From NCBI GenBank assembly GCA_038203565.1, contig JBBRDV010000003.1, positions 1 through 61,350 on the forward strand: a stretch of DNA of 61,350 bases, read 5' to 3'. This stretch comes from Atribacterota bacterium. Its GTDB lineage: Bacteria > Atribacterota > Phoenicimicrobiia > Phoenicimicrobiales > Phoenicimicrobiaceae. Under the pieces are notes generated by a model. The model made no database searches and was not told the origin of the DNA. It was given only the letters and a program-made list of their open reading frames with translations. A program made the position numbers and the translations under genes. Below, one piece after another: positions 12,665-32,037 of this stretch (its first letter is position 1; the number at the start of each line of letters is the position of its first letter).

Positions 12665-14206
12665 TTATACGCCATATCCTTCTTCATCATAATTATTGTT
12701 ACCATTTAATATTTCAATACCTAAGTGATATTTTTTAGCAATTTTCTTCTTCAGAAAATCTCTGGCTACTTCCGGAAATAAAATATAAGATAAAATATCT
12801 TCTATATTTTCGGTAAAATATGGTGCTTCCTTTTTAACTTTTTCAATAGAAGGTTCTAATAAATCAGCAGGTCGGCATTTAATTATATCACTTTTATTAA
12901 TCTTTGCCTTCTTAAAAATTTTTGGGTCAATAGGAGCAGGCGGCCGACCATAAAATCCCCTAATATATTTACGAACTTCTTCCGGAATCATCTTATAACG
13001 TTCCTTTAAAATAACATTTAAGGTCGCTTGAGTTCCTACAATCTGACTGGTAGGAGTAACCAGTGGCGGATAGCCTAATTCCTTTCGAACTTGCGGAATC
13101 TCTTTCAAAACTTCTTCATATTTATCTTCAGCTTTCTGTTGTTTTAGTTGAACAGATAAATTAGACAGCATTCCTCCCGGAATCTGATAAGTTAATACTT
13201 GAGTATCAATTCCTGGAATATTTGATTCCATATCTTTGTGATTTTCTCTCACTTTTTTAAAGTAAGCGGCAATTTCATAGGCTAATTTCAAATCTAACCC
13301 GGTATCACGAGATGTTCCTCTCAAGGTTTCCACCAAAGGTTCCACGGCAGGTTGGGAGGTTTGAAGAGCTAAAGAAGATATCGCTGTATCTACCACATCT
13401 ACTCCAGCTTCTACAGCTTTTAAGTAAGCCATCATCCCCATTCCACTAGTAAAATGACAATGCAGTTGAAGGGGTATTGAGACAACTTCTTTAATAGCTT
13501 TAATTAAAGCAAAAGCTTCATAAGGAGAAATTAAGCCGGCCATATCTTTTATGCAAATCGAATCTGCTCCCATCTGCTCCATTTCTTGAGCCATTTTTAC
13601 GAAGGCATCATGGGTATGAACTGGACTTATAGTATAACAGACAGCTCCTTGAATATGAGCACCCTCTGATTTAACCACTTTAAAAGCAGTCTCCATATTA
13701 CGAATATCGTTCAGAGCATCAAAAATGCGGATAATGTCTAATCCATTAGCTATTGCTCTTTTTATAAATTCGGTTACCACATCATCAGAATAATGTTTAT
13801 AACCTAATATATTCTGTCCCCGTAATAACATTTGAAGCTTAGTATTAGGAAGATGCTTTCTTAAAATTCTCAATCGCTCCCAAGGGTCTTCATTAAGAAA
13901 CCGCAGGCAACTATCAAAAGTAGCCCCTCCCCAGATTTCCATGGAATAAAATCCCACTGCGTCTAATTTATCACAGATAGGCACCATCTCCTCGATAGTC
14001 ATCCGAGTAGCTATTAATGATTGTTGGGCATCTCTTAATGTTGTATCTGTAATTTTAAGCGGTTTTTTTAGCTGTGATTTTTCTTTTAAAAGTATATCCT
14101 GGGGAGTATTGTCTTTTTTTAAAGAAATGTTTCCTTCTAAAGCACTGTCATTTATTATTTTTATATCAGAATCTGCTATTTTTATTAATGTTGCATTTTC
14201 TCCCAT
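12665..14206 (-). CDS. Pyruvate/oxaloacetate carboxyltransferase (OadA / transcarboxylase 5S-like, no biotinyl domain)
   Basis: TLRDAQQSLIATRM, WGGATFD, EDPWERL, IKDMAG, HCHFTSG, QIPGGM and LVTPTSQIVG motifs; about 45 aa N-terminal extension. Confidence 0.92.
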   Translation of the reverse strand: MGENATLIKIADSDIKIINDSALEGNISLKKDNTPQDILLKEKSQLKKPLKITDTTLRDAQQSLIATRMTIEEMVPICDKLDAVGFYSMEIWGGATFDSCLRFLNEDPWERLRILRKHLPNTKLQMLLRGQNILGYKHYSDDVVTEFIKRAIANGLDIIRIFDALNDIRNMETAFKVVKSEGAHIQGAVCYTISPVHTHDAFVKMAQEMEQMGADSICIKDMAGLISPYEAFALIKAIKEVVSIPLQLHCHFTSGMGMMAYLKAVEAGVDVVDTAISSLALQTSQPAVEPLVETLRGTSRDTGLDLKLAYEIAAYFKKVRENHKDMESNIPGIDTQVLTYQIPGGMLSNLSVQLKQQKAEDKYEEVLKEIPQVRKELGYPPLVTPTSQIVGTQATLNVILKERYKMIPEEVRKYIRGFYGRPPAPIDPKIFKKAKINKSDIIKCRPADLLEPSIEKVKKEAPYFTENIEDILSYILFPEVARDFLKKKIAKKYHLGIEILNGNNNYDEEGYGV

Positions 14207-14279
14207 AAATTTAAATCAAAACCTCCTTGAGTAATTTTAATACTCTATTCGATGAATAAATCGAATTCTATATATAAAC

Positions 14280-14301
14280 AACGCAGGCTAAAACCTGCGT
14301 T
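14280..14301. repeat. REP-like hairpin AACGCAGG-CTAAAA-CCTGCGTT
   Basis: Perfect 8-bp GC-rich inverted repeat between mmdB and the carboxyltransferase gene. Confidence 0.5.
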
Positions 14302-14350
14302 ATAAAAAACTAAATATTGCGAATATTGATATATAACATATGTAAAAAGG

Positions 14351-14407
14351 GTAGGGGGCGGATTTATCCGCCCCGATTTTTACGGGTTTGATAAATCAAA
14401 CCCCTGC
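14351..14407. repeat. REPIN (two inverted GTAG-type REPs)
   Basis: GTAGGGGGCGGATTTATCCGCCCC ... GGGTTTGATAAATCAAACCCCTGC. Confidence 0.75.
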
Positions 14408-14467
14408 ACATCACTCATCACATATTATTATTTTCTTCACGATATACGATATACTCGATACAAAATT

Positions 14468-15586
14468 TTATTGTAATAAAGTCAACATCACTCCAGCAGC
14501 AACTGCGGTTCCTATTACTCCTGCTACATTAGGACCCATAGCATGCATTAATAAAAAATTTCTTGGATCTGCTTCCCTGCCTACTTTCTGAACCACTCTG
14601 GCAGCCATAGGTACAGCCGACACTCCGGCAGCGCCAATCAAAGGATTAATATTTCCCCCGGTAATTTTATTTAATAATTTAGCAAATAAAACTCCCCCGG
14701 CTGTCCCAAAACCAAAAGCGATTAAACCTAAGATTATTATTTTAATAGTATTAACGGTCAAAAAATATTCAGCTTGCATGGTTGCTCCTACAGAAGTAGA
14801 TAAAAATATGGTGACGATATTGATTAATTCATTTTGAGCTGTCTTAGATAATCTGTCCACTACTAAACTTTCTCTAAATAAGTTTCCCAGCATTAACATC
14901 CCGATAATGGGGACCGAAGCTGGTAATAAAAGGCCGATTAAAACAGTCGAAATAATGGGAAAGACTATCTTCTCTGACCGGGATACTGGCCTTAGTTGTT
15001 TCATCACTATTTTTCTTTCCTCTATGGTAGTTAATAATTTCATTATGGGAGGCTGAATTATAGGAACCAATGACATATAAGAATATGCCGCCACCGCTAC
15101 AGCTCCCAGTAATTGAGGAGCCATTTTAACGGTAAGATAGATTGCGGTTGGTCCATCTGCTCCGCCAATAATTCCTATAGAAGCTGCTTCCTGTATATTA
15201 AATCCCAAAAGCACTGACCCAATTAAAGCTATAAATACACCTACTTGAGCAGCTGCACCCAAAAGGAAGGTTATCGGATTGGCTAATAAAGGACCGAAAT
15301 CAGTCATTGCTCCAATCCCCAGAAATATTAAACAGGGATATACTTCATGTTTTATTCCCCACGAAATAAAATATAAAAGACCGCCCTCTTCCATTATTCC
15401 GGTTATGGGTAAATTTACTAATATTGCTCCAAAGCCGATAGGTACAAGAAGTAAGGGTTCACATTTCTTTACGATGGCAAAATACAATAATACTCCACCC
15501 ACAATAAGCATTATTATATTACCTACAGTAAGTTCAGCAAATCCTGAAAGGGTAAATAAGGAAAGGACTTTCATTAAAAGATCCAT
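14468..15586 (-). CDS. mmdB: Na+-transporting carboxybiotin decarboxylase beta subunit
   Basis: [26 protein letters not shown] and [12 protein letters not shown] motifs. Confidence 0.95.
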
Positions 15587-15605
15587 TTAAATTCTCCTTT
15601 CTATT

Positions 15606-16019
15606 CTAACCTATTACCATTAAGACATCGCCAGTATCTACCATATCATTTGCGGCTACATTTATTTTTTTTATATTTCCAGAAACATTGGCTATAATTT
15701 CATTTTCCATCTTCATTGCCTCTAAGATTAATAAAGTATCTCCCTCTTTTATAATATCTCCTTCCGATACTTTTAGCTGGAGTATCTTACCCGGCATAGG
15801 TGCTACTACTTCTTCTCCAGCTACCGCTGCAGTTGGTGCTTTGGAAGGAGCTGGATTAGATGAAGGCTTAACTAGTTTTTGACTTGCCGGCTCTTCCTTT
15901 ATTTTAGTTGCAACCGATTGAGGAACAGAAATAGTTCCCGCTGATGATTCATTTCCTCCTACTTCTTCTACTTCTACTTCATATACTTTACCGTCTACTT
16001 TAATTTGAAATTTTCTCAT
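15606..16019 (-). CDS. mmdC: Biotin carboxyl carrier (gamma) subunit
   Basis: Ala/Pro linker and EAMKM biotinylation motif. Confidence 0.93.
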   Translation of the reverse strand: MRKFQIKVDGKVYEVEVEEVGGNESSAGTISVPQSVATKIKEEPASQKLVKPSSNPAPSKAPTAAVAGEEVVAPMPGKILQLKVSEGDIIKEGDTLLILEAMKMENEIIANVSGNIKKINVAANDMVDTGDVLMVIG

Positions 16020-16059: not shown

Positions 16060-16419
16060 TTATCTTTTTTCTAACCTTAATTCTTGTCTCCCCATAGCAG
16101 CCCAGGGAGTAATCAAAGATGTTTGATATTTTTTAATACTCAGTATTTTAAATTTACTTTTCGGTTTTTCTAAACATGTAGCTACCGCTGCAGTAATTAA
16201 TGCTACTAATTTGCCTTCAACTTCTTCTTTTTCTTTTATTTTGACAGTACTTATTGTTGGAGGGACAATCATAGTTTCCTTAGTTGTCTTCTTTGTTTCG
16301 TTAATTCCTATGATATTCTTTAATAATACCATAACTAAAGCTAATCCACCCAGAACTGCAAATACTAAAATCATATCTATAATTGCTATCTGTATAGCTC
16401 CATTGATACCTTCAAACAT
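16060..16419 (-). CDS. mmdD: OadG/MmdD family decarboxylase subunit
   Basis: Single N-terminal TM, LVALITAAV, C-terminal WAAMGRQE; located between mmdA and mmdC. Confidence 0.85.
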   Translation of the reverse strand: MFEGINGAIQIAIIDMILVFAVLGGLALVMVLLKNIIGINETKKTTKETMIVPPTISTVKIKEKEEVEGKLVALITAAVATCLEKPKSKFKILSIKKYQTSLITPWAAMGRQELRLEKR

Positions 16420-16528
16420 ATTTATTCTATCCTCCTTCTTTAATAGTCGTTAGTCGTTAGTGAATAATATATAGTTAAAAGCTAAAAGCTAAAAACCATA
16501 ACCTAAAACTTTCTTTGTATTGTTTGTT

Positions 16529-16601
16529 GTAGGGGTCGAATTTATTCGACCCGAATTATTTCGATAATTTTTCTTGCGGGCTTGATAAATCAAGCCCCTA
16601 C
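16529..16601. repeat. REPIN
   Basis: GTAGGGGTCGAATTTATTCGACCC ... GGGCTTGATAAATCAAGCCCCTAC. Confidence 0.8.
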
Positions 16602-16624
16602 TTCTGTTATTTCCGCATTTTTAT

Positions 16625-16648
16625 GTCATTCCCGCGGAAGCGGGAATC
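16625..16648. repeat. dRS3-like palindrome ATTCCC-N8-GGGAAT
   Basis: GTCATTCCCGCGGAAGCGGGAATC. Confidence 0.65.
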
Positions 16649-16691
16649 TATTCTTGACAGCTGAAACGCTCGCTCTACGTTTACTTATCTC

Positions 16692-16716
16692 GGGCAGACA
16701 CAAGGTCTGCCCCTAC
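16692..16716 (-). repeat. REP GTAGGGGCAGACCTTGTGTCTGCCC
   Basis: Identical 25-mer at 16692, 23139, 37388 and 61166. Confidence 0.85.
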
Positions 16717-16737
16717 CACAAACGACTATATACTAAT

Positions 16738-18294
16738 TTAAACTGGGAAATTACCGTGTTTCTTTGCTGGTCTACTTTCTCTTTTTGTAGATAGCATTTC
16801 AAAAGTTGTTATAAGACGTGGCCTGGTTTCCCGAGGGTCAATAACCATATCAACATAACCTCGTTTGGCCGCTTCATAAGGGTTAGAAAATTTTAGTTGA
16901 AACTCATCAATCTTTTCTTGACGAACTTTTTCAGGATTTTCCGCTTTTTCAATTTCTTTTCTAAAGATGATATTAGCAGCCCCTTGAGAACCCATTACCG
17001 CAATTTCCGCTGTAGGCCAGGCGATTACCTGATCTGCTCCTAAATCCCTGCTACACATTGCCAGATAAGCTCCTCCGTAAGATTTACGAACAATCAAAGT
17101 AATTTTGGGAACAGTAGCTTCGGAATAAGCATAAAGCAATTTTGCTCCATGCCGGATAATCCCCCCATATTCTTGAGCAGTCCCTGGTAAAAATCCCGGA
17201 ACATCTACTAAAGTTAGGATGGGAATATTAAAAGCATCGCAAAATCTGATAAAACGAGCAGCTTTATCAGAAGCATCAATATCTAAACAGCCCGCTAAGA
17301 CTTTTGGTTGATTAGCGATTATACCTAGGGATTGGCCATTTAATCTGGCAAACCCGGTAAGCATATTGGTTGCAAAATAAGATTGGGATTCAAAAAAGTC
17401 TCCTTCATCCACAATATATTTTATTACATCTTTCATTTCATAAGGTTTATTGGGATCTGTAGGTACAATATTTAAAAGAGCCTCTTCCATCCGATTAGGA
17501 TCATCATTACATTCCATTTGGGGAGTATTTTCCATATTATTAGAGGGTAAATAACTGATTAATTTTCTTACCATTTGGTAAACTTCTTCTTCGTTCTCAG
17601 CAGCAAAATGAGCCACTCCACTCTTCCTATTATGAGTCATAGCTCCCCCTAATTTTTCGGAAGTAACTACTTCTCCGGTAACTGCTTTAATCACATCTGG
17701 TCCGGTAATATGCATTATACCCACATTCTTTACCATAAATACAAAATCCATTATGGCAGGAGAGTAGACTGCTCCTCCAGCAGCTGGACCAGCAATGATT
17801 GATATCTGAGGGATTACTCCTGATGCAATGGTATTACGATAAAATATTTGACCATAACCACTTAGGGAATCTACTCCTTCTTGAATGCGAGCTCCACCAG
17901 AATCGTTTATCCCGATACATGGTGCACCCATTTTCATAGCCATATCCATTACCTTACATATCTTCTTAGCGTGCATTTCCCCCAATGAACCGCCCATAAC
18001 GGTAAAATCCTGAGCAAAAACATAAATCAACCTTCCATCGATAGTTCCATAACCAGTTATAACTCCCTCACCAGGCGCTTCCATTTTATCCATTCCAAAG
18101 TTGCTACATCTGTGCTCAACTAACATATCAAGTTCCACAAAGCTATCTTTATCTAAAAGAAGGTCAATCCTTTCCCGAGCAGTAAGTTTACCTTTTTCAT
18201 GTTGAGCTTGTATTCTTTTCTTTCCTCCAGCTGCTTTTACTTTTTCTTCTCTTTCTCTTAAATTTTTCATTAACTCATCAATTGATAATTTCAT
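16738..18294 (-). CDS. mmdA: Methylmalonyl-CoA carboxyltransferase / decarboxylase alpha subunit
   Basis: [36 protein letters not shown] and KKHGNFPV motifs. Confidence 0.95.
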
Positions 18295-18418: not shown

Positions 18419-18823
18419 CTATTCATTTCTTTCACTTAGTTCAATTAGAATGCCATTAGTATCCTTAGGATGTAAGAAGGCCATCTTAGCTCCGCCTGCT
18501 CCATACCTCGGCTTTTCGTCAATTAACCTAACTCCTTCCTTTTTTAATTTCTCTAGTGCTTTCTCGATATTATCAACTCTAAAGGCAATATGTTGAATCC
18601 CTTCACCTTTCTTCTCAATAAATTTGGCAATCGGACCCTCGGGTGAAGTGGATTCTAATAGTTCTAATTCACTATCACCTAAAGGCAAAAAAGCAACTTT
18701 AACTTTCTGCTCTTCTACAATCTCTTCGCCAGCAACTTTCAACCCCAGTATGTTGCTAAAAAGCTCACTGGTTTTTTCAATACTTCTTACCGCGATTCCA
18801 ATATGATCAATCTTTTCTATCAT
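18419..18823 (-). CDS. mce: Methylmalonyl-CoA epimerase
   Basis: IDHIGIAV, ELELLE, GEGIQHIAF, FLHPK and LIELSE VOC-fold motifs. Confidence 0.95.
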   Translation of the reverse strand: MIEKIDHIGIAVRSIEKTSELFSNILGLKVAGEEIVEEQKVKVAFLPLGDSELELLESTSPEGPIAKFIEKKGEGIQHIAFRVDNIEKALEKLKKEGVRLIDEKPRYGAGGAKMAFLHPKDTNGILIELSERNE

Positions 18824-19778
18824 TTTTTATACCTCCCTGTGTATAAGAATGCACTAATATACTTGACAATTTCTCTACAGCAGTATAAGGATCTTCTTCC
18901 CGTTTTACTATTTTAGTTACTATCTTATCTAAAAATCCGTTATCAATAAAAGTTGAAAGTATTTCTTTCCATTGTTCCCGAATAAGGTCAAATATCTCTT
19001 TCTTGGCACTATCCCGGCGTCTTTGTTCTAACTCCCCACTTTCCTTTAGAAATTTAATATGTCGATCAATCTCTTCCAAAAGTTTTTTAATACCGACATT
19101 GTCTGTAGCTATAGTCTTTAGAACCGGAGGACGCCATCTGCTATTTTGATTTAAATCTAACATCATTTCTATCTCAGTAGCTAAACGTTCACAACCTTCT
19201 TTGTCTGCTTTGTTAATTACAAAAATATCTCCTATTTCCATTATCCCGGCTTTTATAATCTGGACATCGTCTCCCATTCCCGGCATGCTTATCAATACGA
19301 CTGTATCAGCTACTTTAACTATATCTACTTCTGATTGACCTACGCCTACTGTTTCAATAATTATTATATCCTTACCCAGCGCATCTAATATCTTAACCGT
19401 TGCCTGGGTAGCTTGAGAAAGTCCCCCCAGATGCCCTCGAGTACTCATGCTTCTAATAAAAACACCTTTATCTAAACTAAGATCCTGCATGCGAATTCTA
19501 TCCCCTAACAATGCGCCGCCGGTAAATGGACTAGCCGGGTCTATGGCAATAATTCCAACGGTTTTTCCCTGTCCACGTAAAATTTTGGTAATTTTATCAG
19601 TGACAGTGCTTTTCCCTGAACCGGGGGGGCCGGTTAAGCCTATTACCAGGGCCTTTCCGGTATAATTATAGAGCTTTTTTAAAATCTCTTGAGCTTGGTT
19701 AAAGTTATTTTCTACTAAAGTTATCAGCTTAGCAGCTGCTCTGCGGTCACCATTGGTTATTTTTTCTACAATTTCCAT
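18807..19778 (-). CDS. meaB: Methylmalonyl-CoA mutase-associated GTPase
   Basis: GPPGSGKST, GGALLGDRIRM, ETVGVGQSE and NKAD motifs. Confidence 0.95.
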   Translation of the reverse strand: MEIVEKITNGDRRAAAKLITLVENNFNQAQEILKKLYNYTGKALVIGLTGPPGSGKSTVTDKITKILRGQGKTVGIIAIDPASPFTGGALLGDRIRMQDLSLDKGVFIRSMSTRGHLGGLSQATQATVKILDALGKDIIIIETVGVGQSEVDIVKVADTVVLISMPGMGDDVQIIKAGIMEIGDIFVINKADKEGCERLATEIEMMLDLNQNSRWRPPVLKTIATDNVGIKKLLEEIDRHIKFLKESGELEQRRRDSAKKEIFDLIREQWKEILSTFIDNGFLDKIVTKIVKREEDPYTAVEKLSSILVHSYTQGGIKNDRKD

Positions 19779-21883: not shown

Positions 21884-21901
21884 CTTACACCTCTTTAATT
21901 C

Positions 21902-22091: not shown

Positions 22092-22093
22092 GT

Positions 22094-22903: not shown

Positions 22904-22930
22904 TTTTGATTACCTTCTCCCAGCATTTTT

Positions 22931-23283: not shown

Positions 23284-23284
23284 A

Positions 23285-24672: not shown

Positions 24673-26133
24673 TTACCTTCTTATTTTGAAATTATTCTGA
24701 TTATTATTTTTCCTTAAACTACCTCCGGAATTAAGATAGTGATTAATTGCCCGAGCTGCTACTTTACCATCTCCTACTGCTGAGATTACTGTAGCCGAAC
24801 CTCTGACAATATCTCCTCCGGCAAATATCCCTTCTTTGGTAGTAGTTTTGGTGTTATCATCTATAATGAAATAACCCCACTGGTTAACCTCAACTCCGGT
24901 AGCGCTTCGAGCTACAATGGGATTAGCAGAAGTCCCGATGGCATCTATGACCATATCTACTTCGATTACAAAATTAGAAACGGGAATAGGAATAGGTCTC
25001 TTTCGACCCGAATCATCCGGTTCACCTAATTTCATCTTCAGACATTCCATTCCGCTAACATTACCCTTATCATCACCCAATACTTTAATAGGAAGAGTAA
25101 GAAAATGAAAGATAATCCCCTCTTCTTCAGCATGATGAACCTCTTCTGCCCGAGCTGGAACTTCTTTTCGGGACCTGCGATAGACGATATAGGACTTCTC
25201 TGCTCCTAACCTTAAGGCAGTACGTGCTGAATCCATGGCTACGTTTCCTGCTCCAATAGTAGCTGTCCTTTTGCCTATCTTAATCGGAGTATCATATTCT
25301 GGGAAGAGATAGGCTTTCATTAAATTAGAACGAGTTAAAAATTCATTGGCTGAATAAACATCATTTAAGTTCTCTCCGGGGATGTTCATAAACCGAGGGG
25401 CACCTGCACCATTGGCTAAGAAGATGGCATCAAATTCTTGAGTTAAGTTATCTACACTTTTAATAGTCCCTACTACAAAATCGGTTACTACTTTCACCCC
25501 TAATTTTTCAATTTCTTTTACTTCGTATTCTACTATCGATTTAGGGAGTCGAAATTCAGGAATACCATAGACTAAAACTCCTCCGGGTCGGTGTAAGGCT
25601 TCAAAGATAGTAACTTCATAACCCAATTTAGCTAAATCAGCAGCACAGGTAAGTCCGGCAGGACCAGAACCTACTATGGCTACTTTCTGTTCTCTTTTAC
25701 TAATTTTTGGTAACTTTCCGTGAATATTATTTTCGCGAGCCCAATCAGCCACAAATCGTTCTAATCGACCGATAGCTATCGGTTTTCCCTGTTTTTCTAA
25801 AATACAAACCTGCTGACACTGTTCTTCTTGAGGGCATACCCTTCCGGTTATCGCCGGAAGGTCATCAGTCTTTAATATTTCCAGATAAGCACCGGCAAAA
25901 TCTTCCTCAACAATTTTTTTAATAAATTGAGGAATATTAATCTCCGCCGGGCAGCCTGGAACACATTTAGGATTTTTACACTGCAGGCATCTTTGAGCTT
26001 CATATATTGCTTGTTCTTTAGTATAACCCAAGGGTACTTCCTTAAAGTTGTGGCTCCTCTCTTGAGGTTTTTGTTCGGGCATAGGGATCTGCTCTCTTTG
26101 CATTCTTTCTTTGGGGGGTATCATTTTAGCCAT
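24673..26133 (-). CDS. nfnB: Electron-bifurcating transhydrogenase large subunit (GltD/SudA family); start reassigned to ATG 26133
   Basis: EAQRCLQCKNPKCVPGCP, TGRVCPQE, GSGPAG and GAGNVAMD motifs; adjacent to nfnA; no glutamate synthase large subunit in the window. Confidence 0.88.
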   Translation of the reverse strand: MAKMIPPKERMQREQIPMPEQKPQERSHNFKEVPLGYTKEQAIYEAQRCLQCKNPKCVPGCPAEINIPQFIKKIVEEDFAGAYLEILKTDDLPAITGRVCPQEEQCQQVCILEKQGKPIAIGRLERFVADWARENNIHGKLPKISKREQKVAIVGSGPAGLTCAADLAKLGYEVTIFEALHRPGGVLVYGIPEFRLPKSIVEYEVKEIEKLGVKVVTDFVVGTIKSVDNLTQEFDAIFLANGAGAPRFMNIPGENLNDVYSANEFLTRSNLMKAYLFPEYDTPIKIGKRTATIGAGNVAMDSARTALRLGAEKSYIVYRRSRKEVPARAEEVHHAEEEGIIFHFLTLPIKVLGDDKGNVSGMECLKMKLGEPDDSGRKRPIPIPVSNFVIEVDMVIDAIGTSANPIVARSATGVEVNQWGYFIIDDNTKTTTKEGIFAGGDIVRGSATVISAVGDGKVAARAINHYLNSGGSLRKNNNQNNFKIRR

Positions 26134-26137
26134 TAGT

Positions 26138-26989
26138 TTACCCCCTTCCACAGCTACATAGGTGAGTAGGTTCGTGGTAGAGATCCCAGGATTTTTTCTC
26201 CGCATCTTTATAACGGGAAAGACGATTCATAAACTCTACCCAGTCTACTAATTGTCCATTAAATTCCGGTCCATCAGTACAGGCAAATTTGCTCTCTCCT
26301 CCGATGGTAACCCTGCAGGAACCACACATTCCGGTACCATCTACCATAATACTATTTAGACTGACTATAGTTTCTACCGGATAAGGTTTGGTGGTTTCAC
26401 AGGTTACCTTCATCATAATAGCCGGACCGATAGCCCATACCTTTTTAATTGATTTATCCTTATCTAACAACTCTTTTAAAACTTGAGTGACAAATCCTTT
26501 TCGTCCATAACTGCCATCATCAGTGGTGACCATCAATTTTGAGGAGGCTTTCTTAATCTCCTCTTCCATGATAATCAATTCCTTGTTTCGGGCTCCGATT
26601 ATGGAAATGACTTCGTTTCCGGCTTCTTTTAAGGCACGAGTAATCGGATGGATGCAGGCGATCCCGGTACCTCCGCCTACAGTTATTACTTTTCCATAGT
26701 TTTCAATCTCGGTCTTTTTACCTAAGGGTCCGATAAAGGAGAATAGTTTATCTCCTTCTTCCAGGGTAGAAAGTTCCTCACTGGTCTTGCCCACTATCTG
26801 AAAGACAATGCGGATTAAGCCTTTATCTCGGTCAAAATCGGCAACAGTTAAGGGGATTCGTTCTCCTTTCTCCTTAATCATTAGAATAATAAACTGTCCG
26901 GCTTGAACAGATTGGGCTACTTCTGAGGCTTCTATCCACATTGAGTAGATAATTTCATGTAATCTTTCCTTATTAATTACTTTGTACAT
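26138..26989 (-). CDS. nfnA: Electron-bifurcating transhydrogenase small subunit
   Basis: GERIPLT, GGGTGIA and MVDGTGMCGSCR...CTDGPEF [2Fe-2S] motifs. Confidence 0.9.
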   Translation of the reverse strand: MYKVINKERLHEIIYSMWIEASEVAQSVQAGQFIILMIKEKGERIPLTVADFDRDKGLIRIVFQIVGKTSEELSTLEEGDKLFSFIGPLGKKTEIENYGKVITVGGGTGIACIHPITRALKEAGNEVISIIGARNKELIIMEEEIKKASSKLMVTTDDGSYGRKGFVTQVLKELLDKDKSIKKVWAIGPAIMMKVTCETTKPYPVETIVSLNSIMVDGTGMCGSCRVTIGGESKFACTDGPEFNGQLVDWVEFMNRLSRYKDAEKKSWDLYHEPTHLCSCGRG

Positions 26990-27018: not shown

Positions 27019-28245
27019 CTATAGGTTTGCTGAAATTTCTGCTGTATCTTTAGCAATCATTAACTCCTCGTTAGTAGGAATTACCATAACTTTTACTCTT
27101 GAATTATTATTACTTATAATGGCTTCCTTGCCATGAACTTTATTTTTCTCCGGGTCAATTTTTACTCCTAAAAATTCCAATCCTTCACATGCTTCCGCTC
27201 TGGTTTCTTTGGAATTTTCTCCAATACCCGCTGTAAAAACAATTACATCAAGTCCGCCCATAGCTGCTGCATAGGCTCCTATGTATTTTTTTATACCGTA
27301 AGTGAAGACAGATATAGTTCTTATAGCTCTTTCATCACCCTTATTTGCCCTCTCTCTTAAATCTCTCTTATCACTTGAAATTCCTTCTGATAGACCCAAG
27401 AATCCACTTTCTTTATAGATAATTTTATTAATTCCTTCAACGGTGAGTTTTTCTTTATCCATTAAAAAGGGGATGATTGCCGGATCAAGATCTCCACAAC
27501 GGGTTCCCATTATTATGCCGGCAACTGTACCAAATCCTAAACTGGTATCTAGGGAAACTCCGTTTTTTACAGCAGTAATACTTGAGCCATTCCCTAAGTG
27601 GCAAGTAATTATTTTAAGCTCTTCCAGGGATTTTTCTAAAATTTTAGCTGCTCTTTGAGCTACAAATTTATGAGAAGTTCCATGGAATCCATATCTTCTC
27701 ACTTTATACTTCTTGTAAAATTTATAAGGAATACCATAGAGATAAGCGCATTCCGGAATAGTCTGATGAAAAGCAGTATCGAATACTCCCACTTGGGGTA
27801 CTCCGGGCATTAGCTCTTTACAGACTTCTATCCCTAAAATGTTAGGCGGGTTATGTAAAGGAGCAAGTTCAATACATTCTTTTAAGGCGTCCATAACTTC
27901 ATCGGTAAGTAAAACTGAGTCAGAAAATTTTTCCCCAGCATGAACTACCCTATGGCCTACTGCTACTATTTCAGAGATATCCTTAATTACACCATAATTT
28001 GAATGAAGTAAGGCATCCATCATTAATTTAATCCCAACCCTATGGTTAGGAATATCCTGATGGGTTATAACCGGTTCCCTGCCGGAAGGATAATGATTAA
28101 TAATTGAATCAGAAATTCCAATCCTCTCCACTAACCCCTTGGCCAGAACCGACTCATCAGTCATGTCGAATAACTGATATTTTATAGATGAACTGCCGCT
28201 ATTAACCACTAAAACTTTCATTTTATTCTTAATCTCCTTTTTCAC
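27019..28245 (-). CDS. ackA: Acetate/propionate kinase family protein with a variant acyl pocket
   Basis: NSGSSSIK, HRVVH, APLHNP, FDTAFH, YGFHGTSH, CHLGNG, TAGIGEN and TNEE motifs. Confidence 0.92.
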   Translation of the reverse strand: MKKEIKNKMKVLVVNSGSSSIKYQLFDMTDESVLAKGLVERIGISDSIINHYPSGREPVITHQDIPNHRVGIKLMMDALLHSNYGVIKDISEIVAVGHRVVHAGEKFSDSVLLTDEVMDALKECIELAPLHNPPNILGIEVCKELMPGVPQVGVFDTAFHQTIPECAYLYGIPYKFYKKYKVRRYGFHGTSHKFVAQRAAKILEKSLEELKIITCHLGNGSSITAVKNGVSLDTSLGFGTVAGIIMGTRCGDLDPAIIPFLMDKEKLTVEGINKIIYKESGFLGLSEGISSDKRDLRERANKGDERAIRTISVFTYGIKKYIGAYAAAMGGLDVIVFTAGIGENSKETRAEACEGLEFLGVKIDPEKNKVHGKEAIISNNNSRVKVMVIPTNEELMIAKDTAEISANL

Positions 28246-28250
28246 AAATT

Positions 28251-28829
28251 TTAATTTATCTTATTGACTGATTTCTTATTTTTTACTTTTAAATCTTTAG
28301 CAATATCAAACCCCAAGAATAAGGCTTTCTCGTTTACTTCCTTTGCTTTAACCGGAACCCTAGAACACACTGCCTTTTGAATAGCTTCTTGGGAAACCAC
28401 TTCAGTTAACCCTACAATTATACCCAAAGAAATAATATTGGTAACTAATTTCGTTCCACATTTTTTTTGAGCGGTTTCAGCAATAGGAAATAAATATATT
28501 TTATTTGAGATATTAGGAATCTCTGTTACTAATGTAGAATCAGCAACCAGGATACCGTCTTTATTTAGATTTTTGACATATTTATCGCAAGCAGTCTGAG
28601 TTAGAGCTAAAAGGATATCTGATTTTATCACTTTAGGATAATCTATAGCACTATTACTTATAACTACTTCTGATCTACTGGCTCCTCCTCGGGCTTCGGG
28701 TCCGTAAGACTGGGTTTGAACCGCTTCTTTTCCATCATATATGCCGGCTGCTTCGGCTAAAATTATTCCAGCCAAAATTAGCCCCTGGCCTCCGGAACCA
28801 CTTAAACACATTTCGATTCTTTCTTTCAT
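28251..28829 (-). CDS. korC: 2-oxoacid (likely 2-oxoglutarate):ferredoxin oxidoreductase gamma subunit
   Basis: GSGGQG and QSYGPEARGGASRSEV motifs. Confidence 0.9.
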   Translation of the reverse strand: MKERIEMCLSGSGGQGLILAGIILAEAAGIYDGKEAVQTQSYGPEARGGASRSEVVISNSAIDYPKVIKSDILLALTQTACDKYVKNLNKDGILVADSTLVTEIPNISNKIYLFPIAETAQKKCGTKLVTNIISLGIIVGLTEVVSQEAIQKAVCSRVPVKAKEVNEKALFLGFDIAKDLKVKNKKSVNKIN

Positions 28830-29656
28830 TACTTATTAACTCCCCTTTCCTGAGCCTTTTTGATAATCTCTTCATATAGTTCAGTATAGTCTGGTCTATC
28901 TTTGTTTAAAAACTCGCCTACAGCATATTTTTCCTTTTTTTCACCAGGGGAAAGCCCTTCCCATATTTTTTTAGAAACAGTTATATCTTTTATCCACTTT
29001 AACATATCTACCGGTGATTTCATTTTATTCATTCTACCATAAGATACGGGGCAATCAGATATTATTTCTACTACTGAAAACCCTTTTTTGTCTAAAGCCT
29101 TTTTTATTAAAGAGATTAATTGCCGAACATTGTAAACCGTTCCTCGAGCCACATAACTTGCACCCGCTGCAATCGCCAGTTCAACCAAATCAAAAGATTG
29201 GTCAATATTCCCATAAGGAGCAGTAGAACCAAACTTTCCAGTTGGAGTAAGGGGCGAATATTGACCTCCGGTCATTCCATAAATCATATTATTAATAATT
29301 ATAGCGGTTAAATCGATATTACGCCGTGCTGCGTGGATAAAATGGTTTCCACCAATTGCTGAACAATCGCCATCTCCCATAACTACAATTACCTTTAAAT
29401 CAGGATTAGCCATTTTTATGCCAGTAGCAAAAGGCAAAGCTCTTCCGTGGGTGGTATTCATAGTACAAAAATCTACATATTCGGTAATTCGGCTGGAGCA
29501 GCCTATACCAGAAACCGCTACAATTTCATCTTTATCCCAACTTAAATCATCTATAGCTCTTATTATAGCTCCTAATACAATGCCATTTCCGCATCCCGGA
29601 CACCACATATTGGGAAACATCTCTTTTCTAATATACTCATCAATTACTGTCTTCAT
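28829..29656 (-). CDS. korB: 2-oxoacid:ferredoxin oxidoreductase beta subunit
   Basis: WCPGCG, SGIGCS, HGRA, GDGD and YGMTGGQ motifs. Confidence 0.92.
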   Translation of the reverse strand: MKTVIDEYIRKEMFPNMWCPGCGNGIVLGAIIRAIDDLSWDKDEIVAVSGIGCSSRITEYVDFCTMNTTHGRALPFATGIKMANPDLKVIVVMGDGDCSAIGGNHFIHAARRNIDLTAIIINNMIYGMTGGQYSPLTPTGKFGSTAPYGNIDQSFDLVELAIAAGASYVARGTVYNVRQLISLIKKALDKKGFSVVEIISDCPVSYGRMNKMKSPVDMLKWIKDITVSKKIWEGLSPGEKKEKYAVGEFLNKDRPDYTELYEEIIKKAQERGVNK

Positions 29657-30807
29657 TGCTTTATCTCCTCCCCAATCTTCCCTAATATCTCTATAGGATT
29701 AATTAATTCACCATCTACTCGATTATAAGGTACAACCCGACATTTTCCTTGAGCAGCTCTCTCTACTTCTAAAACCATTTGACCTAAATTCATTTCCGGA
29801 ACTATAATTAAATCTACCTGTTGAGCCAACCTATTTACTTCTTCAAAACAGAAAGGCCAAATAGTCAATAACTTTAATAGACCTACTTTTAACCCTTCTT
29901 CTCGTGCTAGTTTTACTGCTCTCTCAGCAGCTCTTGCCACTGAACCATAGGCAATTAAAGCAATTTTTGCATCATCTAAAGAATATTTTTCGTAAATTAT
30001 TATATCTTTAATATTCTTCTGAATCTTATTATGTAAACGCCTTATAAAAGCATCTATTTCTTGGGAGTTAGAAGTAGGTAAACCTTTATAATTATGAATC
30101 AAACCGGTTATATGATAACGGTATCCTTCTCCAAAGTTGGCCATAGGAGGAACTCCGTCTTCATCAGGCTTAAAGGGTAAATATTTTTCAGGGAGAACAG
30201 TAGGTTTTTTTCGGTTTATCACTTCAATGTCTTCCAGAGCAGGTATCTCTACCTTTTCCCGCATATGGGCGATTACTTCGTCAAGAAGTAAAATGACTGG
30301 TATTCTATATTTTTCACTAAAATTAAATGCTTTGATAGTTAAGGTAAGTATCTCATGAACGGTGGAAGGGGCGAGGGCTATAATAGGATGATCTCCATGA
30401 GTTCCCCATCTTGCCTGCATCATATCACCCTGAGATGGTTTAGTAGGTAATCCGGTACTCGGCCCTCCTCTTTGAGCGTTAACTACTACACAGGGTATTT
30501 CGTTAATAATAGCAAAACCTAAATTTTCTTGTTTCAAGCACATTCCGGGACCCGAAGTAGCAGTCAGAGATTTTAGCCCAGCTATAGAAGCCCCAATTAC
30601 TGCTGCCATACTGGCAATTTCATCCTCCATCTGTATAAATTTCCCGCCAATTTTAGGTAATTTACGCGCCATATTTTCAGCTATCTCTGAAGAGGGAGTT
30701 ATGGGATAACCGGCAAAAAATTTAACTCCGGCTAATAATGCTCCTTCGGCACAGGCTTCATTTCCTTGTAATAATTTTATATTTTTTTTCTTTTCTAAAT
30801 TATTCAT
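29653..30807 (-). CDS. korA: 2-oxoacid:ferredoxin oxidoreductase alpha subunit
   Basis: GYPITPS, QMEDEI, ATSGPG, QRGGPSTG and PEMNLGQ motifs. Confidence 0.92.
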   Translation of the reverse strand: MNNLEKKKNIKLLQGNEACAEGALLAGVKFFAGYPITPSSEIAENMARKLPKIGGKFIQMEDEIASMAAVIGASIAGLKSLTATSGPGMCLKQENLGFAIINEIPCVVVNAQRGGPSTGLPTKPSQGDMMQARWGTHGDHPIIALAPSTVHEILTLTIKAFNFSEKYRIPVILLLDEVIAHMREKVEIPALEDIEVINRKKPTVLPEKYLPFKPDEDGVPPMANFGEGYRYHITGLIHNYKGLPTSNSQEIDAFIRRLHNKIQKNIKDIIIYEKYSLDDAKIALIAYGSVARAAERAVKLAREEGLKVGLLKLLTIWPFCFEEVNRLAQQVDLIIVPEMNLGQMVLEVERAAQGKCRVVPYNRVDGELINPIEILGKIGEEIKQ

Positions 30808-31042
30808 CTTTCTCTTTCACTCCTTCTACTTTAATAGCAAAATCCGGACATCTCAATTCACAAAGGCCGCATTTTATACAAGCATCAATATTTTCAGGGA
30901 TGGGTTTCTCCTGATCATCAGGGACTAATACATCCTTAGGACAAAATTCAACACAGATACCGCATGATTTACACCATTCTCTGCGAACTGATATCTTTAC
31001 TGAATTATTTTGATAAACTTCAAATAATTTTTCCTGCTTCAT
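30800..31042 (-). CDS. korD: 2-oxoacid:ferredoxin oxidoreductase delta subunit (2x[4Fe-4S])
   Basis: CKSCGICVEFCP and CIKCGLCELRCP. Confidence 0.92.
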   Translation of the reverse strand: MKQEKLFEVYQNNSVKISVRREWCKSCGICVEFCPKDVLVPDDQEKPIPENIDACIKCGLCELRCPDFAIKVEGVKEKDE

Positions 31043-31047
31043 TTCTT

Positions 31048-32037
31048 TTATAATATGCCTCCTTCTCTTTTAATGTCTAAAATGGCTAATTTTAACATAC
31101 TCATAGAACCTTTATCGGGAATATAAACAAACTCAATGAGGGGAATTTGAAGAGAAATTAATTTTTCTACTTCTTTCTTTCTTCCAGGAGAAGTTATTAC
31201 TATATCTGTGTTAATCAAAAATTTCTTTACTTCATCTTTATCATGAGAGATGGTAAATTTAAAGCTTGAGAATTTTATTCCTGCCTGTTTTATAGATTGG
31301 AAAACCCTTTGGGCAAATTTATCGGTAATGCATACCAAACCAATACTTTTCTCTTTGGAAGATAAATGAGCAATATTTACCATGGTTTCCATTAAGGGAT
31401 CTAAGGCAATGGCGAGAACCCTCTGTTTTTGATCGGCAAGAAATTTTTTAACTTCATCAGAGTGAAAAAAGGTAGTAACTACTAAATCTATAGATTTGAT
31501 TTTTTCTCTAAAAATATCTGGTTCTTTATAGATCTCATCTATTAAGATGGGAATTATGGAAATGCCTGTTCCTAATTCTATCCCTTTGGAAAAAAAATAC
31601 AATTGTTCCTGATTACATTCAATAAAAGCGATATTAATATTTTTTAATAATTTTTCTTTTTCTTTTATTTTATTATTTACTATTTTTTTAAACTCACCTA
31701 ACTCAAAATTTAACTCGAGGGCTTCATTAATAGTAACATCGATAATTTCTTCTATTTTTGATAGATTATTATTCATTTTAGATTTGGTAGGCTTAGAGGT
31801 TTTCGGATTAGGAAAAGTTCCCCGCCCCGGGATAGATAATATTATATCCTCCAAGACTAATTCTTTGTAGGCCATACTTACTGTATTTCTGCTAACCTGC
31901 AAACTTTCTGATAAATCTCTTTCGGTAGGCAGTTGCTCCCCTTCCTTTAAATTTCCATCTTCTAACAATTTCTTAATCTGGTGTTTTATCTGGATATATA
32001 AAGGAATCCCACTCTTCTTATCAATCTCAATTTTCAT
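31048..32037 (-). CDS. GntR-family transcriptional regulator with a long C-terminal effector domain
   Basis: PLYIQI...LPTERDLS...VSRNTVSMAY...GRGTF winged HTH; C-terminal TTFFH motif. Confidence 0.9.
   Translation of the reverse strand: MKIEIDKKSGIPLYIQIKHQIKKLLEDGNLKEGEQLPTERDLSESLQVSRNTVSMAYKELVLEDIILSIPGRGTFPNPKTSKPTKSKMNNNLSKIEEIIDVTINEALELNFELGEFKKIVNNKIKEKEKLLKNINIAFIECNQEQLYFFSKGIELGTGISIIPILIDEIYKEPDIFREKIKSIDLVVTTFFHSDEVKKFLADQKQRVLAIALDPLMETMVNIAHLSSKEKSIGLVCITDKFAQRVFQSIKQAGIKFSSFKFTISHDKDEVKKFLINTDIVITSPGRKKEVEKLISLQIPLIEFVYIPDKGSMSMLKLAILDIKREGGIL

Follow-up and report, generated by a model that had tools for sequence, protein, structure and literature searches.

The gene cluster at 12665–32037 is best read as a catabolic module by which glutamate (and 2-oxoglutarate) would be fermented oxidatively to propionate, with ATP gained via an acyl phosphate and Na+ exported by Mmd, and we consider this reading fairly probable. 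The cluster lies on the minus strand, as do all features given below, in the window, the 61,350-nucleotide stretch of DNA that was analysed, whose source phylum had correctly been named as Atribacterota. The organism is of the JS1 type, an abundant, uncultured sediment bacterium. All 19 ORFs of the cluster were confirmed in coordinates and order, each matching its named family: GntR, KorDABC, an acetate/propionate-family kinase, NfnAB, glutamate dehydrogenase (GDH), a P-loop/Asp23 protein, a split B12 mutase, MeaB, an epimerase, MmdA-D-C-B and a biotin-less OadA/5S carboxyltransferase. This bears out the gene list and order of the initial annotation, from gntR to the carboxyltransferase.

The family assignments agree with the enzymatic logic proposed there, which leads from GDH over KOR and the mutase and epimerase to the Na+ pump Mmd and has NfnAB beside this chain. 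GDH would convert glutamate to 2-oxoglutarate and NAD(P)H, and KorDABC would form succinyl-CoA and reduced ferredoxin by oxidative decarboxylation. From succinyl-CoA, the B12 mutase, which MeaB loads, and the epimerase would make (S)-methylmalonyl-CoA, and MmdADCB would convert this to propionyl-CoA, coupled to Na+ export. Pta, PduL or Ptb, encoded elsewhere, and the specialised kinase of the cluster may then yield propionate and ATP. NfnAB would equilibrate NADPH, NADH and ferredoxin, and the electrons would leave as H2 via an [FeFe] hydrogenase; a hydrogenase is encoded in the genome. A measured precedent is Thermanaerovibrio acidaminovorans, which makes propionate when it ferments glutamate, 2-oxoglutarate or succinate. 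Activities of GDH, 2-oxoglutarate oxidation, propionate kinase and hydrogenase are found in this bacterium; succinate thiokinase, fumarate reductase and SDH are absent from it (PMC3035242).

As far as the sequence tells, the KOR belongs to the Oor/KGOR type rather than to the pyruvate or branched-chain type, which agrees with the substrate first assigned to it. The alpha subunit of this four-subunit 2-oxoacid:ferredoxin oxidoreductase, korA (29653–30807; POR_N/PFOR_II), matches PRK08659 with 590 bits (cut-off 411), as compared to 419 for the Oor alpha model, 316 for VorB and 119 for PorA, and its top PDB matches are 1yd7 and 8ys5 ('2-oxoglutarate synthase alpha'). The TPP-binding beta subunit korB (28829–29656; TPP_enzyme_C) matches PRK09628, '2-oxoglutarate ferredoxin oxidoreductase beta', with 344 bits (cut-off 364) and has 8ys5_C as its top PDB match, 296 bits. 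The gamma subunit korC (28251–28829) matches PF01558 (POR gamma) and PRK08537 (207 bits), and korD (30800–31042), the 2x[4Fe-4S] delta subunit with Fer4 families and two CxxCxxCxxxCP motifs, has OGOR_delta as its top NCBIfam match, 60 bits, under the cut-off of 125. Since the beta and delta scores, and that of the Oor alpha model (NCBIfam equivalog), fall under their cut-offs, the 2-oxoglutarate specificity rests on the rank order and the closest solved structure. A separate VorB-type enzyme adjoins ptb-buk elsewhere in the genome, which also carries a two-subunit OFOR, a point that counts against our reading.

The kinase gene ackA (27019–28245; Acetate_kinase 518 bits, TIGR00016 520 bits, cut-off 293) is a second paralogue, as there is a canonical pta-ackA pair on another contig (C1). 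The pta-linked kinase is 48% identical to that of the cluster and keeps the canonical acyl pocket GFTPLEG, in place of which 17 of the 18 cluster orthologues have GFGT[VI][AS]G; the exception reads GFTPVPG (locus L090). Similar changes of the acyl pocket are seen in ackA genes adjoining mcm in other phyla, and the cluster kinase is a probable propionate kinase. The small subunit of the NADH-dependent ferredoxin:NADP+ oxidoreductase, nfnA (26138–26989), matches PRK06222 (413 bits) and the PDB entries 5jca_S and 4ylf_A. The large bifurcating subunit nfnB (24673–26205; TIGR01316 614 bits) is closest to the solved T. maritima NfnAB structure (4ylf_B, 607 bits) and probably starts at Met25, near 26133. 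The GDH of the cluster (23285–24589) has ELFV domains and the motifs GPAKGG, WKCAV, GGGKGG and GGVTVSYFE, and its top PDB matches are all GDHs (1gtm, 408 bits).

The catalytic subunit of the methylmalonyl-CoA mutase (20204–21883; MM_CoA_mutase 792 bits, TIGR00641 843 bits) has the motif RQY89AGF, and the B12-binding subunit (19789–20184; TIGR00640 184 bits) a DGHDRG (DxHxxG) motif. They are followed by the G-protein chaperone MeaB (18807–19778; TIGR00750 378 bits, cut-off 241) and the methylmalonyl-CoA epimerase (18419–18823; TIGR03081 168 bits, cut-off 115). The 12S-type carboxyltransferase mmdA (16738–18294; PF01039 702 bits) has TIGR01117 mmdA as its best match, 916 bits against a cut-off of 999. 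The OadG-like membrane anchor mmdD (16060–16419; PF04277, OAD_gamma, 37 bits) has one N-terminal TM segment, and mmdB (14468–15586; OAD_beta 531 bits, TIGR01109 518 bits, cut-off 191) is the multi-spanning beta subunit of a Na+-translocating decarboxylase. The biotin carboxyl carrier mmdC (15606–16019; PF00364, EAMKM motif) is the only one in the genome with a significant match. What had been listed simply as a final carboxyltransferase does belong to that family, and can be refined to an OadA/PycB/5S-type subunit lacking the biotin domain (12665–14206; HMGL-like and PYC_OADA; PRK12331 726 bits, cut-off 718; 5S model PRK12330 594 bits). Where present, it may allow the one biotin carrier to act in oxaloacetate decarboxylation or methylmalonyl-CoA:pyruvate transcarboxylation as well. 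The gene is accessory: among the loci extending to this end of the cluster, 8 have it and 10 lack it, with absences even within the same genus. The claim that the whole route is clustered therefore needs two corrections: GDH, KOR, mutase and epimerase, Mmd and NfnAB are together, but this last gene is patchy, and the candidate genes for the phosphotransacylase (pta, pduL and ptb) are found on other contigs.

The direction of the route had been left open, and the genome content favours, as we infer, the oxidative one from glutamate to propionate. The 99%-complete, 1.97-Mb genome was surveyed, and in it no succinyl-CoA synthetase (SCS), fumarate reductase/succinate dehydrogenase (FRD/SDH), ScpC/Cat1-type CoA-transferase, Si-citrate synthase (PF00285) or Rnf/Nqr was found. 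The sole Succ_DH_flav_C match was rejected as FRD/SDH, the gene being NadB within a nadABC cluster, and FrdA/SdhA above cut-off occurs in 0 of 52 genomes of the order. Succinyl-CoA has no outlet besides the mutase route in this genome; a sucC-like gene is found patchily, in about a third of the genomes of the order, so that some relatives may connect succinyl-CoA with succinate. The absence of Rnf/Nqr makes Mmd plausible as the main Na+ pump. The gene content does not support the published view, in which JS1 is a classical propionate oxidiser, and since the enzymes of classical propionate oxidation are missing, the JS1-type lineage is probably a maker and not a consumer of propionate.

It is unlikely, in our view, that the route runs in reverse. 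Kinase and Pta would then activate propionate, either Na+-driven Mmd or 12S/5S transcarboxylation with oxaloacetate as donor would carboxylate it, and after isomerisation to succinyl-CoA the KOR would carboxylate reductively to 2-oxoglutarate. The end product would be glutamate by amination (for assimilation, as osmolyte or as nitrogen store) or, through IDH, aconitase and citrate cleavage, acetyl-CoA. The enzymes are all reversible in principle, which counts against any fixed direction; Nfn is commonly a maker of NADPH for biosynthesis, and the OadA/5S-type subunit, IDH and aconitase are encoded here. Moreover, the literature credits JS1 with propionate use and, in the part of it considered here, calls these genes propionate catabolism after Nobu et al. 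2016, which speaks against our reading, and for Cloacimonadota a form of propionate oxidation that is linked to KOR has been suggested (PMC13082233). As catabolism, however, the reverse direction has no oxidative exit with FRD/SDH and SCS absent, and loading two CO2 and reducing power onto propionate would consume ATP, reduced ferredoxin and Na+ gradient. A Re-type synthase that cleaves citrate is only putative, the 5S subunit for an energy-neutral carboxylation is absent in about half of the relatives, and the membrane subunit of the Na+ pump and the kinase fit energy conservation best. An anabolic route is also already given by a separate cluster (C21) with an ANTAR regulator, gdh2, an HMGL-type synthase, aconitase (990 bits) and an IDH-like gene, which can supply anabolic glutamate, so that the KOR-linked GDH is not required for biosynthesis.

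Only tentatively can an amphibolic use be suggested, oxidative at low H2, and reductive to 2-oxoglutarate or glutamate at high H2 and CO2 with propionate available, NfnAB and the Na+ gradient setting the direction. The reversible chemistry, the redox-balancing Nfn within the cluster and the glutamate reported as an Atribacteria osmolyte are consistent with it, as are the small free-energy change of glutamate fermentation to propionate and H2 and its stimulation by methanogens (PMC3035242). Against it stand the dedicated anabolic cluster and the single repressor-type promoter, which suggests substrate-induced catabolism over dual use.

Judged from the sequence, the arrangement is far beyond chance. 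Synteny of the array extends over 27 Atribacterota loci of three families, with the order kept down to 72–75% mutase identity, and in its full form it is found in at least 13 genera of two families. In the basal third family, f7, it is a compact gntR-korDABC-asp23-mcm-meaB-mce-mmdADCB operon with short gaps throughout and without ackA-nfnAB-gdh. The segments stay together in all the relatives that were examined, a point on which the initial annotation had staked its reading. The protein that it labelled ATPase/Asp23 (22094–22903, 269 aa) does have an N-terminal Walker A, GESGTGKS, a motif without a Pfam match, and an Asp23 domain at residues 213–267, and its gene follows gdh (or korC) and precedes mcmA in 27 of 27 loci. 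It is very improbable, and already disfavoured by the synteny, that the kor, ack, nfn-gdh and mcm-mmd modules are merely adjacent on the leading strand. The co-orientation is indeed no special mark, since in the 61-kb window all ORFs of at least 110 aa are on the minus strand, the sole exception being embedded in a minus-strand gene. The five cluster junctions with gaps of 124–381 bp, several bearing hairpins, the mcm-mmd half, which many phyla have as a module of its own, and the unrelated gene context of the P-loop/Asp23 homologues in Sporomusaceae would also fit mere adjacency. Against this, besides the kept order and the f7 operon, Spirochaetota likewise have korDABC directly upstream of mcm, the flanks of the cluster are unrelated housekeeping genes, and there is just one conserved promoter/operator.

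This promoter, of sigma-70 type (32113–32140), lies upstream of gntR and has a -35 TTGCTT (32135–32140), a 16-nt spacer and an extended -10 TGgTATTAT (32113–32121). The extended -10 is TGGTATTCT, TGGTATTAT or TGGTATAAT in most loci, with GTTATTAT-type variants in several loci of family f1. Directly downstream of the -10 is a putative GntR operator (32080–32103) of three tandem 8-bp boxes, TTAATCAA, TCAGTCCA and TTAGTCCA, the only multi-box site in promoter context when the 1.97-Mb genome was scanned. Of 16 loci from f1, f2 and f7, 15 keep both the box array and the extended -10 with a TTGACA-like -35; the sole exception for both is L101, whose upstream region differs. The regulator (31048–32037, 329 aa) has a winged HTH (PF00392, 57 bits) and a two-lobed alpha/beta effector domain, which would bind its ligand; in homologues this C-terminal domain bears the precomputed label PF27163. 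The AF2 model has a pLDDT of 82.6, and the fold search gave a confident match for the HTH only. GntR may bind the triple-box operator and probably represses transcription, which would start from the one conserved promoter. Upstream, an intrinsic terminator of the FTCD_C gene (32171–32207; stem GGGGAGA...TCTCCCC, then T8) marks the cluster boundary.

The suggestion of one regulon is partly supported, by this single site, unique in the genome, and by the gap-free operon of f7, and the ancestral state of the cluster may have been a single operon. In the present genome, however, sub-blocks could be transcribed independently, given the long spacers and, from mmdB to oadA, a terminator-like hairpin (14278–14303; 11-pair stem, then a T-rich tail). 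The 381-nt spacer from gdh to the P-loop/Asp23 gene (22904–23284) has three GC-rich REP-like hairpins, with inverted heptad repeats (UAUAUCG)4 / (CGAGAUA)3 as a clamp, and a predicted RNA fold of -121 kcal/mol (z = -7.0); in many relatives this junction is only 19–83 nt. A clamp of inverted heptad repeats, about 25 bp, is also seen in the 210-nt spacer at 21884–22093 (fold z = -4.9). Three REP-like hairpins, with TAGT-type heptad repeats at both ends, are found in the 318-nt spacer from mmdA to mmdD (16420–16737). The 227-nt spacer at the downstream boundary, before DUF5693 (12438–12664), has an (AGUAUCG)n / (CGAUACU)n clamp with a fold z of -5.2.

Profile searches found 19 ORFs on the minus strand between 12665 and 32037, and these match the gene families and the gene order named in the initial annotation. 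The array starts with a GntR regulator, followed by KorD-A-B-C (a 2-oxoacid:ferredoxin oxidoreductase, KOR), an acetate/propionate-family kinase, NfnA, NfnB, a glutamate dehydrogenase (GDH) and a 269-aa Asp23-domain protein. It continues with the catalytic and B12 subunits of a mutase, MeaB, methylmalonyl-CoA epimerase, and the methylmalonyl-CoA decarboxylase (Mmd) proteins MmdA, MmdD (OadG-like), MmdC (biotin carrier) and MmdB (membrane), and ends with a 513-aa OadA/PycB/5S-type carboxyltransferase in which the biotin domain is absent. The gene names agree with the closest solved structures in a PDB comparison. The genome carrying the window, which is its contig C3, is 1.97 Mb in 218 contigs and estimated to be 99% complete, and its placement in the Atribacterota was right, since the cluster mutase is 94–96% identical to the mutases of Atribacterota MAGs, for instance RBG_19FT_COMBO_35_14. 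Upstream of the array a strong terminator (32171-32207, minus strand) ends an FTCD_C gene, 5' of which lie bPH, prfB and secA, and the downstream neighbours are DUF5693, a pyruvyl transferase, ftsEX, an M23 peptidase and a Ctp protease. Across the whole window (1-61350) all ORFs of at least 110 aa but one are on the minus strand, and the GC skew is uniformly negative over the 61 kb; the co-orientation of the array is therefore uninformative on its own.

Synteny in relatives had been proposed as a check on the cluster, and the gene order was found to be identical in 27 Atribacterota loci. Of 86 species genomes of the Atribacterota, 49 encode the mutase, comprising nearly all of families f1 and f2, which form one order, and the basal family f7, and it is absent from families f3-f6 of the same set. 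The full array is kept in 13 or more genera of f1 and f2, with mutase identity down to 72%, and ackA is missing from it in one genus. The f7 loci (L099 in genome G034 and L107 in genome G033) have an essentially spacer-free operon of 14 genes, gntR-korDABC-asp23-mcmA-B12-meaB-mce-mmdA-D-C-B, without ackA-nfnAB-gdh and with an ATG22-like MFS transporter gene directly upstream of gntR. Because KOR, mutase and Mmd occur there without ackA-nfnAB-gdh, they are the core of the array, and ackA-nfnAB-gdh are a later insertion. It is very unlikely that the genes lie side by side by chance, given the synteny and the gap-free f7 operon. The OadA-type gene is accessory; it is present in 8 and absent in 10 of the loci that reach the array end, and varies inside a genus.

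The median distance between neighbouring genes does not exceed 33 bp between gntR and gdh; it is 83–210 bp at the gdh/asp23, asp23/mcmA, mce/mmdA and mmdA/mmdD junctions. Dispersed hairpins rich in GC, of GTAGGGG...CCC families with about 15–50 matches each in the genome, occupy the long spacers in this genus, and such hairpins were located in 22904-23284, 21884-22093, 16420-16737, 14207-14467 and 12438-12664. Spacers are also bracketed by inverted tandem heptamers, e.g. (TATATCG)n/(CGATATA)n, that fold into stems some 25 bp long (z = -5 to -7 in RNA folding), and the heptamer unit at the same junction varies between related genomes. There are 37 paired period-7 arrays genome-wide, three of them in or beside the cluster, which makes up 1% of the sequence. 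The clamped hairpins may serve RNase III-type processing or RNA stabilisation; alternatively, they may represent a MITE-like element. No riboswitch or other known RNA was found in the spacers by an Rfam search of 12000-33000 at E up to 0.1.

Of 16 loci in three families, 15 share a regulatory region 5' of gntR, the exception being L101, where the upstream region differs. It consists of a -35 box, an extended -10 box and, directly after the -10, three tandem 8-bp boxes TTARTCMA. The extended -10 is TGGTATTCT, TGGTATTAT or TGGTATAAT in most loci, and several f1 loci have GTTATTAT-type variants. The box array occurs a single time in the genome, 5' of gntR, and has the look of an operator through which a repressor would act on the block's only promoter. 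A generic promoter scan was uninformative, since the 63 promoter-like sites were no more than the 67 in shuffled sequence. A fold search did not yield a ligand for the GntR effector domain; the matches were dominated by the HTH, and those to the two-lobe alpha/beta part were weak (carbamoyltransferases and glutamate racemase, TM about 0.2–0.3).

The simplest reading of the array is an oxidative fermentation of glutamate to propionate. We infer the direction of the flux, the Na+ coupling, the specificity of KOR and the co-transcription of the array alike from the genes. In the first step GDH would convert glutamate to 2-oxoglutarate. The residues binding the gamma-carboxylate of glutamate, together with the catalytic lysine, are K89, K113, K125 and S380 in Clostridium symbiosum numbering, and the cluster GDH retains the glutamate-binding lysines and the serine in the motifs GPAKGG, WKCAV, GGGKGG and GGVTVSYFE. 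All its top PDB matches are GDHs, the closest being the Pyrococcus and Thermococcus enzymes. KOR would then oxidise 2-oxoglutarate to succinyl-CoA and reduced ferredoxin. It is a delta-alpha-beta-gamma set with a TPP-binding beta subunit (Pfam) and two CxxCxxCxxxCP motifs in KorD, a delta subunit with two [4Fe-4S] clusters. The ranking of the models (beta, PRK09628 344 bits against 64 for VOR; alpha, Oor 419 against 316 for VorB and 119 for PorA) favours an Oor/KGOR enzyme with a predicted specificity for 2-oxoglutarate, with the Oor-specific models all scoring under their cut-offs (344 against 364, 419 against 579 and 60 against 125 bits). The closest solved chain to KorB, 8ys5_C, was deposited as the beta subunit of 2-oxoglutarate ferredoxin oxidoreductase, and a true VorB, at 558 bits, is found elsewhere in the genome beside ptb-buk. 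The adjacent NfnA (FAD/2Fe-2S; PRK06222, 413 bits, cut-off 220) and NfnB (2x[4Fe-4S]/FAD/NADPH; TIGR01316, 614 bits, cut-off 472) form a pair of the electron-bifurcating transhydrogenase type, and bifurcation itself is predicted. The best PDB match of NfnB is Thermotoga maritima NfnAB (4ylf_B, 607 bits), and those of NfnA are Pyrococcus furiosus NfnI (5jca, 323 bits) and also 4ylf. By linking NADPH, NADH and ferredoxin, Nfn would allow the hydrogenase to release H2.

Succinyl-CoA would be rearranged by the mutase, MeaB and the epimerase to (R)- and then (S)-methylmalonyl-CoA. The models for this system all score above cut-off (TIGR00641 843 bits, TIGR00640 184, TIGR00750 378, TIGR03081 168), and the small subunit has the B12-binding DxHxxG motif as DGHDRG. 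A tyrosine in RQYAGF marks the methylmalonyl-CoA mutase (MCM) type, and a phenylalanine there isobutyryl-CoA mutase; the catalytic subunit reads RQY89AGF, of the Tyr type, and scores 701 bits with the MCM model as compared to 361 with the IcmF model. Mmd would decarboxylate methylmalonyl-CoA to propionyl-CoA, and this step is predicted to be coupled to Na+ export. MmdB is a multi-spanning integral-membrane beta subunit of the Na+-decarboxylase family (TIGR01109 518 bits, cut-off 190.6; PF03977 531 bits), MmdC is a separate biotin carrier (PF00364) with an EAMKM motif, and MmdD is an OadG-like anchor (PF04277 37 bits, cut-off 27). The best match of MmdA, a 12S-type carboxyltransferase alpha subunit with a predicted specificity for methylmalonyl-CoA, is TIGR01117 mmdA at 916 bits, under its cut-off of 998.8, and it has 702 bits with PF01039. 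By tblastn, which is a weak test, MmdC (15606-16019) was the sole biotin carrier and MmdA the sole carboxyltransferase found in the genome, and the same weak test showed no parts of an acetyl-CoA carboxylase genome-wide.

The final steps would be the conversion of propionyl-CoA to propionyl phosphate by Pta, PduL or Ptb, all encoded outside the array, and of propionyl phosphate to propionate and ATP by the cluster kinase (27019-28245). This protein belongs to the acetate/propionate kinase superfamily (TIGR00016, 520 bits) and is 48% identical to the pta-linked AckA of the same genome. In the acetate kinase of Methanosarcina Pro232 lines the acetate pocket, and the canonical acyl-pocket segment is GFTPLEG. 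The pta-linked paralogue has this segment; the cluster kinase reads GFGTVAG instead, and its orthologues read GFGT[VI][AS]G in 17 of 18 cases, with GFTPVPG in L090. Judged by its pocket, the cluster kinase is not a typical AckA, and the replacement of GFTPLEG by GFGT[VI][AS]G is a sign of a different acyl substrate, propionate being the simplest candidate. In three loci from Bacillota and unclassified MAGs (L014, L018, L026) an ackA homologue directly upstream of mcmA reads GF[ST]TMCG, without TPLEG, which suggests that a mutase-adjoining kinase with a noncanonical pocket is a recurrent type.

The rest of the genome bears on where succinyl-CoA can come from or go to. Succinyl-CoA synthetase (SCS) was not found; TIGR01016 yields only a 30-bit fragment, which is instead an ADP-forming acyl-CoA synthetase (ACD)-like fragment at a contig end. 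Neither was succinate dehydrogenase or fumarate reductase (SDH/FRD), the only Succ_DH_flav_C match being no fumarate reductase but NadB, within a nadA-nadB-nadC cluster. A ScpC/Cat1-type CoA-transferase is absent by a PF13336 search, and the genome likewise has no Rnf/Nqr. With no SCS, SDH/FRD or ScpC/Cat1-type CoA-transferase, the only source or outlet of succinyl-CoA in this genome would be 2-oxoglutarate, given the families searched. Among 52 genomes of the order, FrdA/SdhA (TIGR01812 above cut-off) was found in none, and sucC-like genes in about 18, or about a third. Outside the array the genome carries one [FeFe] hydrogenase and a two-subunit 2-oxoacid:ferredoxin oxidoreductase (OFOR), as well as pduL and a pta-ackA pair of the canonical kind; of its two ptb-buk pairs, one precedes a VorB-type OFOR. 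The VorB-type cluster, ptb-buk-(P-loop protein)-vorDABC on contig C32 (517-5875), is typical of branched-chain amino-acid fermentation, and brings the OFORs of the genome to at least three, in distinct contexts.

The reverse route, from propionate to glutamate or beyond, is chemically possible, and it agrees with what the JS1 (Atribacterota) literature assumes and with a proposal made for Cloacimonadota in 2026 (PMC13082233). As catabolism it has no oxidative exit in this genome, and as anabolism it would duplicate a cluster on contig C21 (7991-14854), which encodes a GAF/ANTAR regulator, a second GDH (gdh2), an HMGL-type synthase, aconitase (990 bits) and an IDH-like dehydrogenase, followed by ilvD-ilvBN-ilvC. 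The second GDH is 43% identical to the cluster GDH and nearer to the archaeal GdhA model, and the synthase is of a kind that includes Re-citrate synthases. The C21 cluster probably gives this genome, where Si-citrate synthase is absent, an anabolic way of its own to 2-oxoglutarate and glutamate. That the array is used in both directions, depending on the conditions, we consider unlikely. More speculative still, and rather improbable, is that it is a reversible converter between glutamate and propionate plus two CO2, poised by H2 and the Na+ gradient. At low H2 JS1 would ferment glutamate from necromass to propionate; at high H2, CO2 and propionate the enzymes would run backwards, Mmd as a carboxylase driven by Na+, KOR as a 2-oxoglutarate synthase and Nfn towards NADPH, fixing two CO2 onto propionate, with glutamate as an osmolyte or nitrogen store and the long transcript cut at the heptad-repeat RNA clamps into pieces of differing stability.

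The fermentation of glutamate to propionate has an enzymatic precedent in Thermanaerovibrio (Selenomonas) acidaminovorans of the Synergistota, which makes propionate from glutamate, 2-oxoglutarate and succinate and on which methanogens have a stimulating effect (PMC3035242; the enzymology is from Guangsheng et al. 1992, as summarised there). The likeness, which is at the gene level only, includes GDH, a 2-oxoglutarate-oxidising enzyme, the methylmalonyl-CoA route, propionate kinase and hydrogenase, together with the absence of succinate thiokinase, fumarate reductase and SDH (PMC3035242), and H2 would be the electron sink in both. The precedent rests on enzyme assays and not on a gene cluster, and the Synergistota loci we retrieved have mcm-mce-mmd only, without kor or gdh. 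T. acidaminovorans uses a propionyl-CoA:succinate CoA-transferase, whereas no ScpC/Cat1-type (PF13336) homologue was found here, and Nfn is not reported for it, whereas nfnAB lies inside the array.

The eight genes mcmA-B12-meaB-mce-mmdA-D-C-B form the Na+-pumping succinate-to-propionate module of Propionigenium and many anaerobes. In the array they have the same order and are 60–77% identical to loci of Clostridia, Fusobacteriota, Synergistota, Spirochaetota and others. Here the module stands behind gntR-korDABC-(ackA-nfnAB-gdh)-asp23, which suggests that its succinyl-CoA comes from 2-oxoglutarate and not from succinate. In four Spirochaetota loci (L023, L024, L027, L017) the mutase and Mmd genes likewise follow directly after a four-subunit KOR, with 47–60% KOR identity; these operons differ in having a divergent IclR-type regulator and no ackA, nfnAB, gdh or P-loop/Asp23 gene. 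Spirochaetota are thus a second phylum in which KOR and the propionate module are joined. In L023 (4272-17185) korDABC-mcm-meaB-mce-mmdA..mmdB is preceded by the divergent IclR and a 580-aa OadA-like carboxyltransferase.

The classical methylmalonyl-CoA (mmc) pathway of syntrophic propionate oxidisers needs succinate dehydrogenase, fumarase and malate dehydrogenase, as well as either SCS or a CoA-transferase. The array has the mutase, the epimerase and 12S/5S/1.3S-type carboxyltransferase parts in common with the mmc cluster of Pelotomaculum thermopropionicum and Syntrophobacter, but SDH/FRD is missing from all 52 genomes of the order that were compared and SCS from the own genome, and a membrane Na+ pump subunit takes the place of a soluble transcarboxylase. 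A KOR-linked "alternative mmc pathway" was proposed for Cloacimonadota (ISME J 2026, PMC13082233), where KOR genes also adjoin epimerase and mmd, GDH is present, SCS and SDH are missing and fumarase is listed as missing, and succinyl-CoA is likewise joined to 2-oxoglutarate and glutamate. Unlike ours, that proposal is in the propionate-oxidising direction, with an exit via aspartate aminotransferase; it concerns another phylum, and gntR, nfnAB, gdh and ackA are not reported in one array (PMC13082233).

The enzyme families and the overall chemistry are all known already. Among the bacteria of anoxic marine sediments, oil reservoirs and gas-hydrate zones, JS1 Atribacterota belong to the most abundant. 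Since 2016 the JS1 literature has described them as secondary fermenters that oxidise propionate by means of the methylmalonyl-CoA pathway; their mutase and carboxylase genes have also been cited as an argument for alkane degradation. Here these genes are seen to sit in a deeply conserved block under one regulator, where the only succinyl-CoA partner is a 2-oxoglutarate-type ferredoxin oxidoreductase beside GDH, Nfn and a specialised acyl kinase, and the enzymes taking succinyl-CoA on to oxaloacetate are missing order-wide (FrdA/SdhA 0/52; sucC-like in about 18/52). In the papers compared we found no earlier conserved, regulator-led array in which mutase-Mmd is joined to KOR, Nfn, GDH and a specialised acyl kinase, nor the promoter/operator of the array or the order-wide FRD/SDH absence; part of the cluster may already be shown by Nobu et al. 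2016. As far as gene content can tell, these three features speak against propionate oxidation of the classical kind in JS1. Should the oxidative reading hold, JS1 is a fermenter of glutamate (amino acids) that supplies propionate, H2, CO2 and ammonium and not a propionate sink, which would change models of deep-biosphere carbon flow. Glutamate or 2-oxoglutarate with an H2 scavenger would then be a cultivation strategy for the lineage, of which no marine-sediment isolate is reported in the JS1 literature searched.

The protein between gdh and the mutase genes (22094-22903, minus strand) had been named ATPase/Asp23, and the ATPase half of the name is borne out by a Walker A motif, GESGTGKS, at its start, fused to the Asp23 domain. 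In Foldseek its AF2 model (pLDDT 73) matched only in the ferredoxin-like C-terminal domain, which resembles the CTD of CDF transporters; the P-loop domain had no specific Foldseek match and no Pfam model match. The fusion belongs to a wider family, with 47–50% identity in Sporomusaceae (L109-L112), and its database name is only "Asp23/Gls24 envelope stress protein". A role as a general mutase accessory factor was dropped because the Sporomusaceae homologues adjoin miaB-mutS-mutL and not mcm. The gene lies there after an 89-aa ORF and before TauE, miaB, mutS and mutL.
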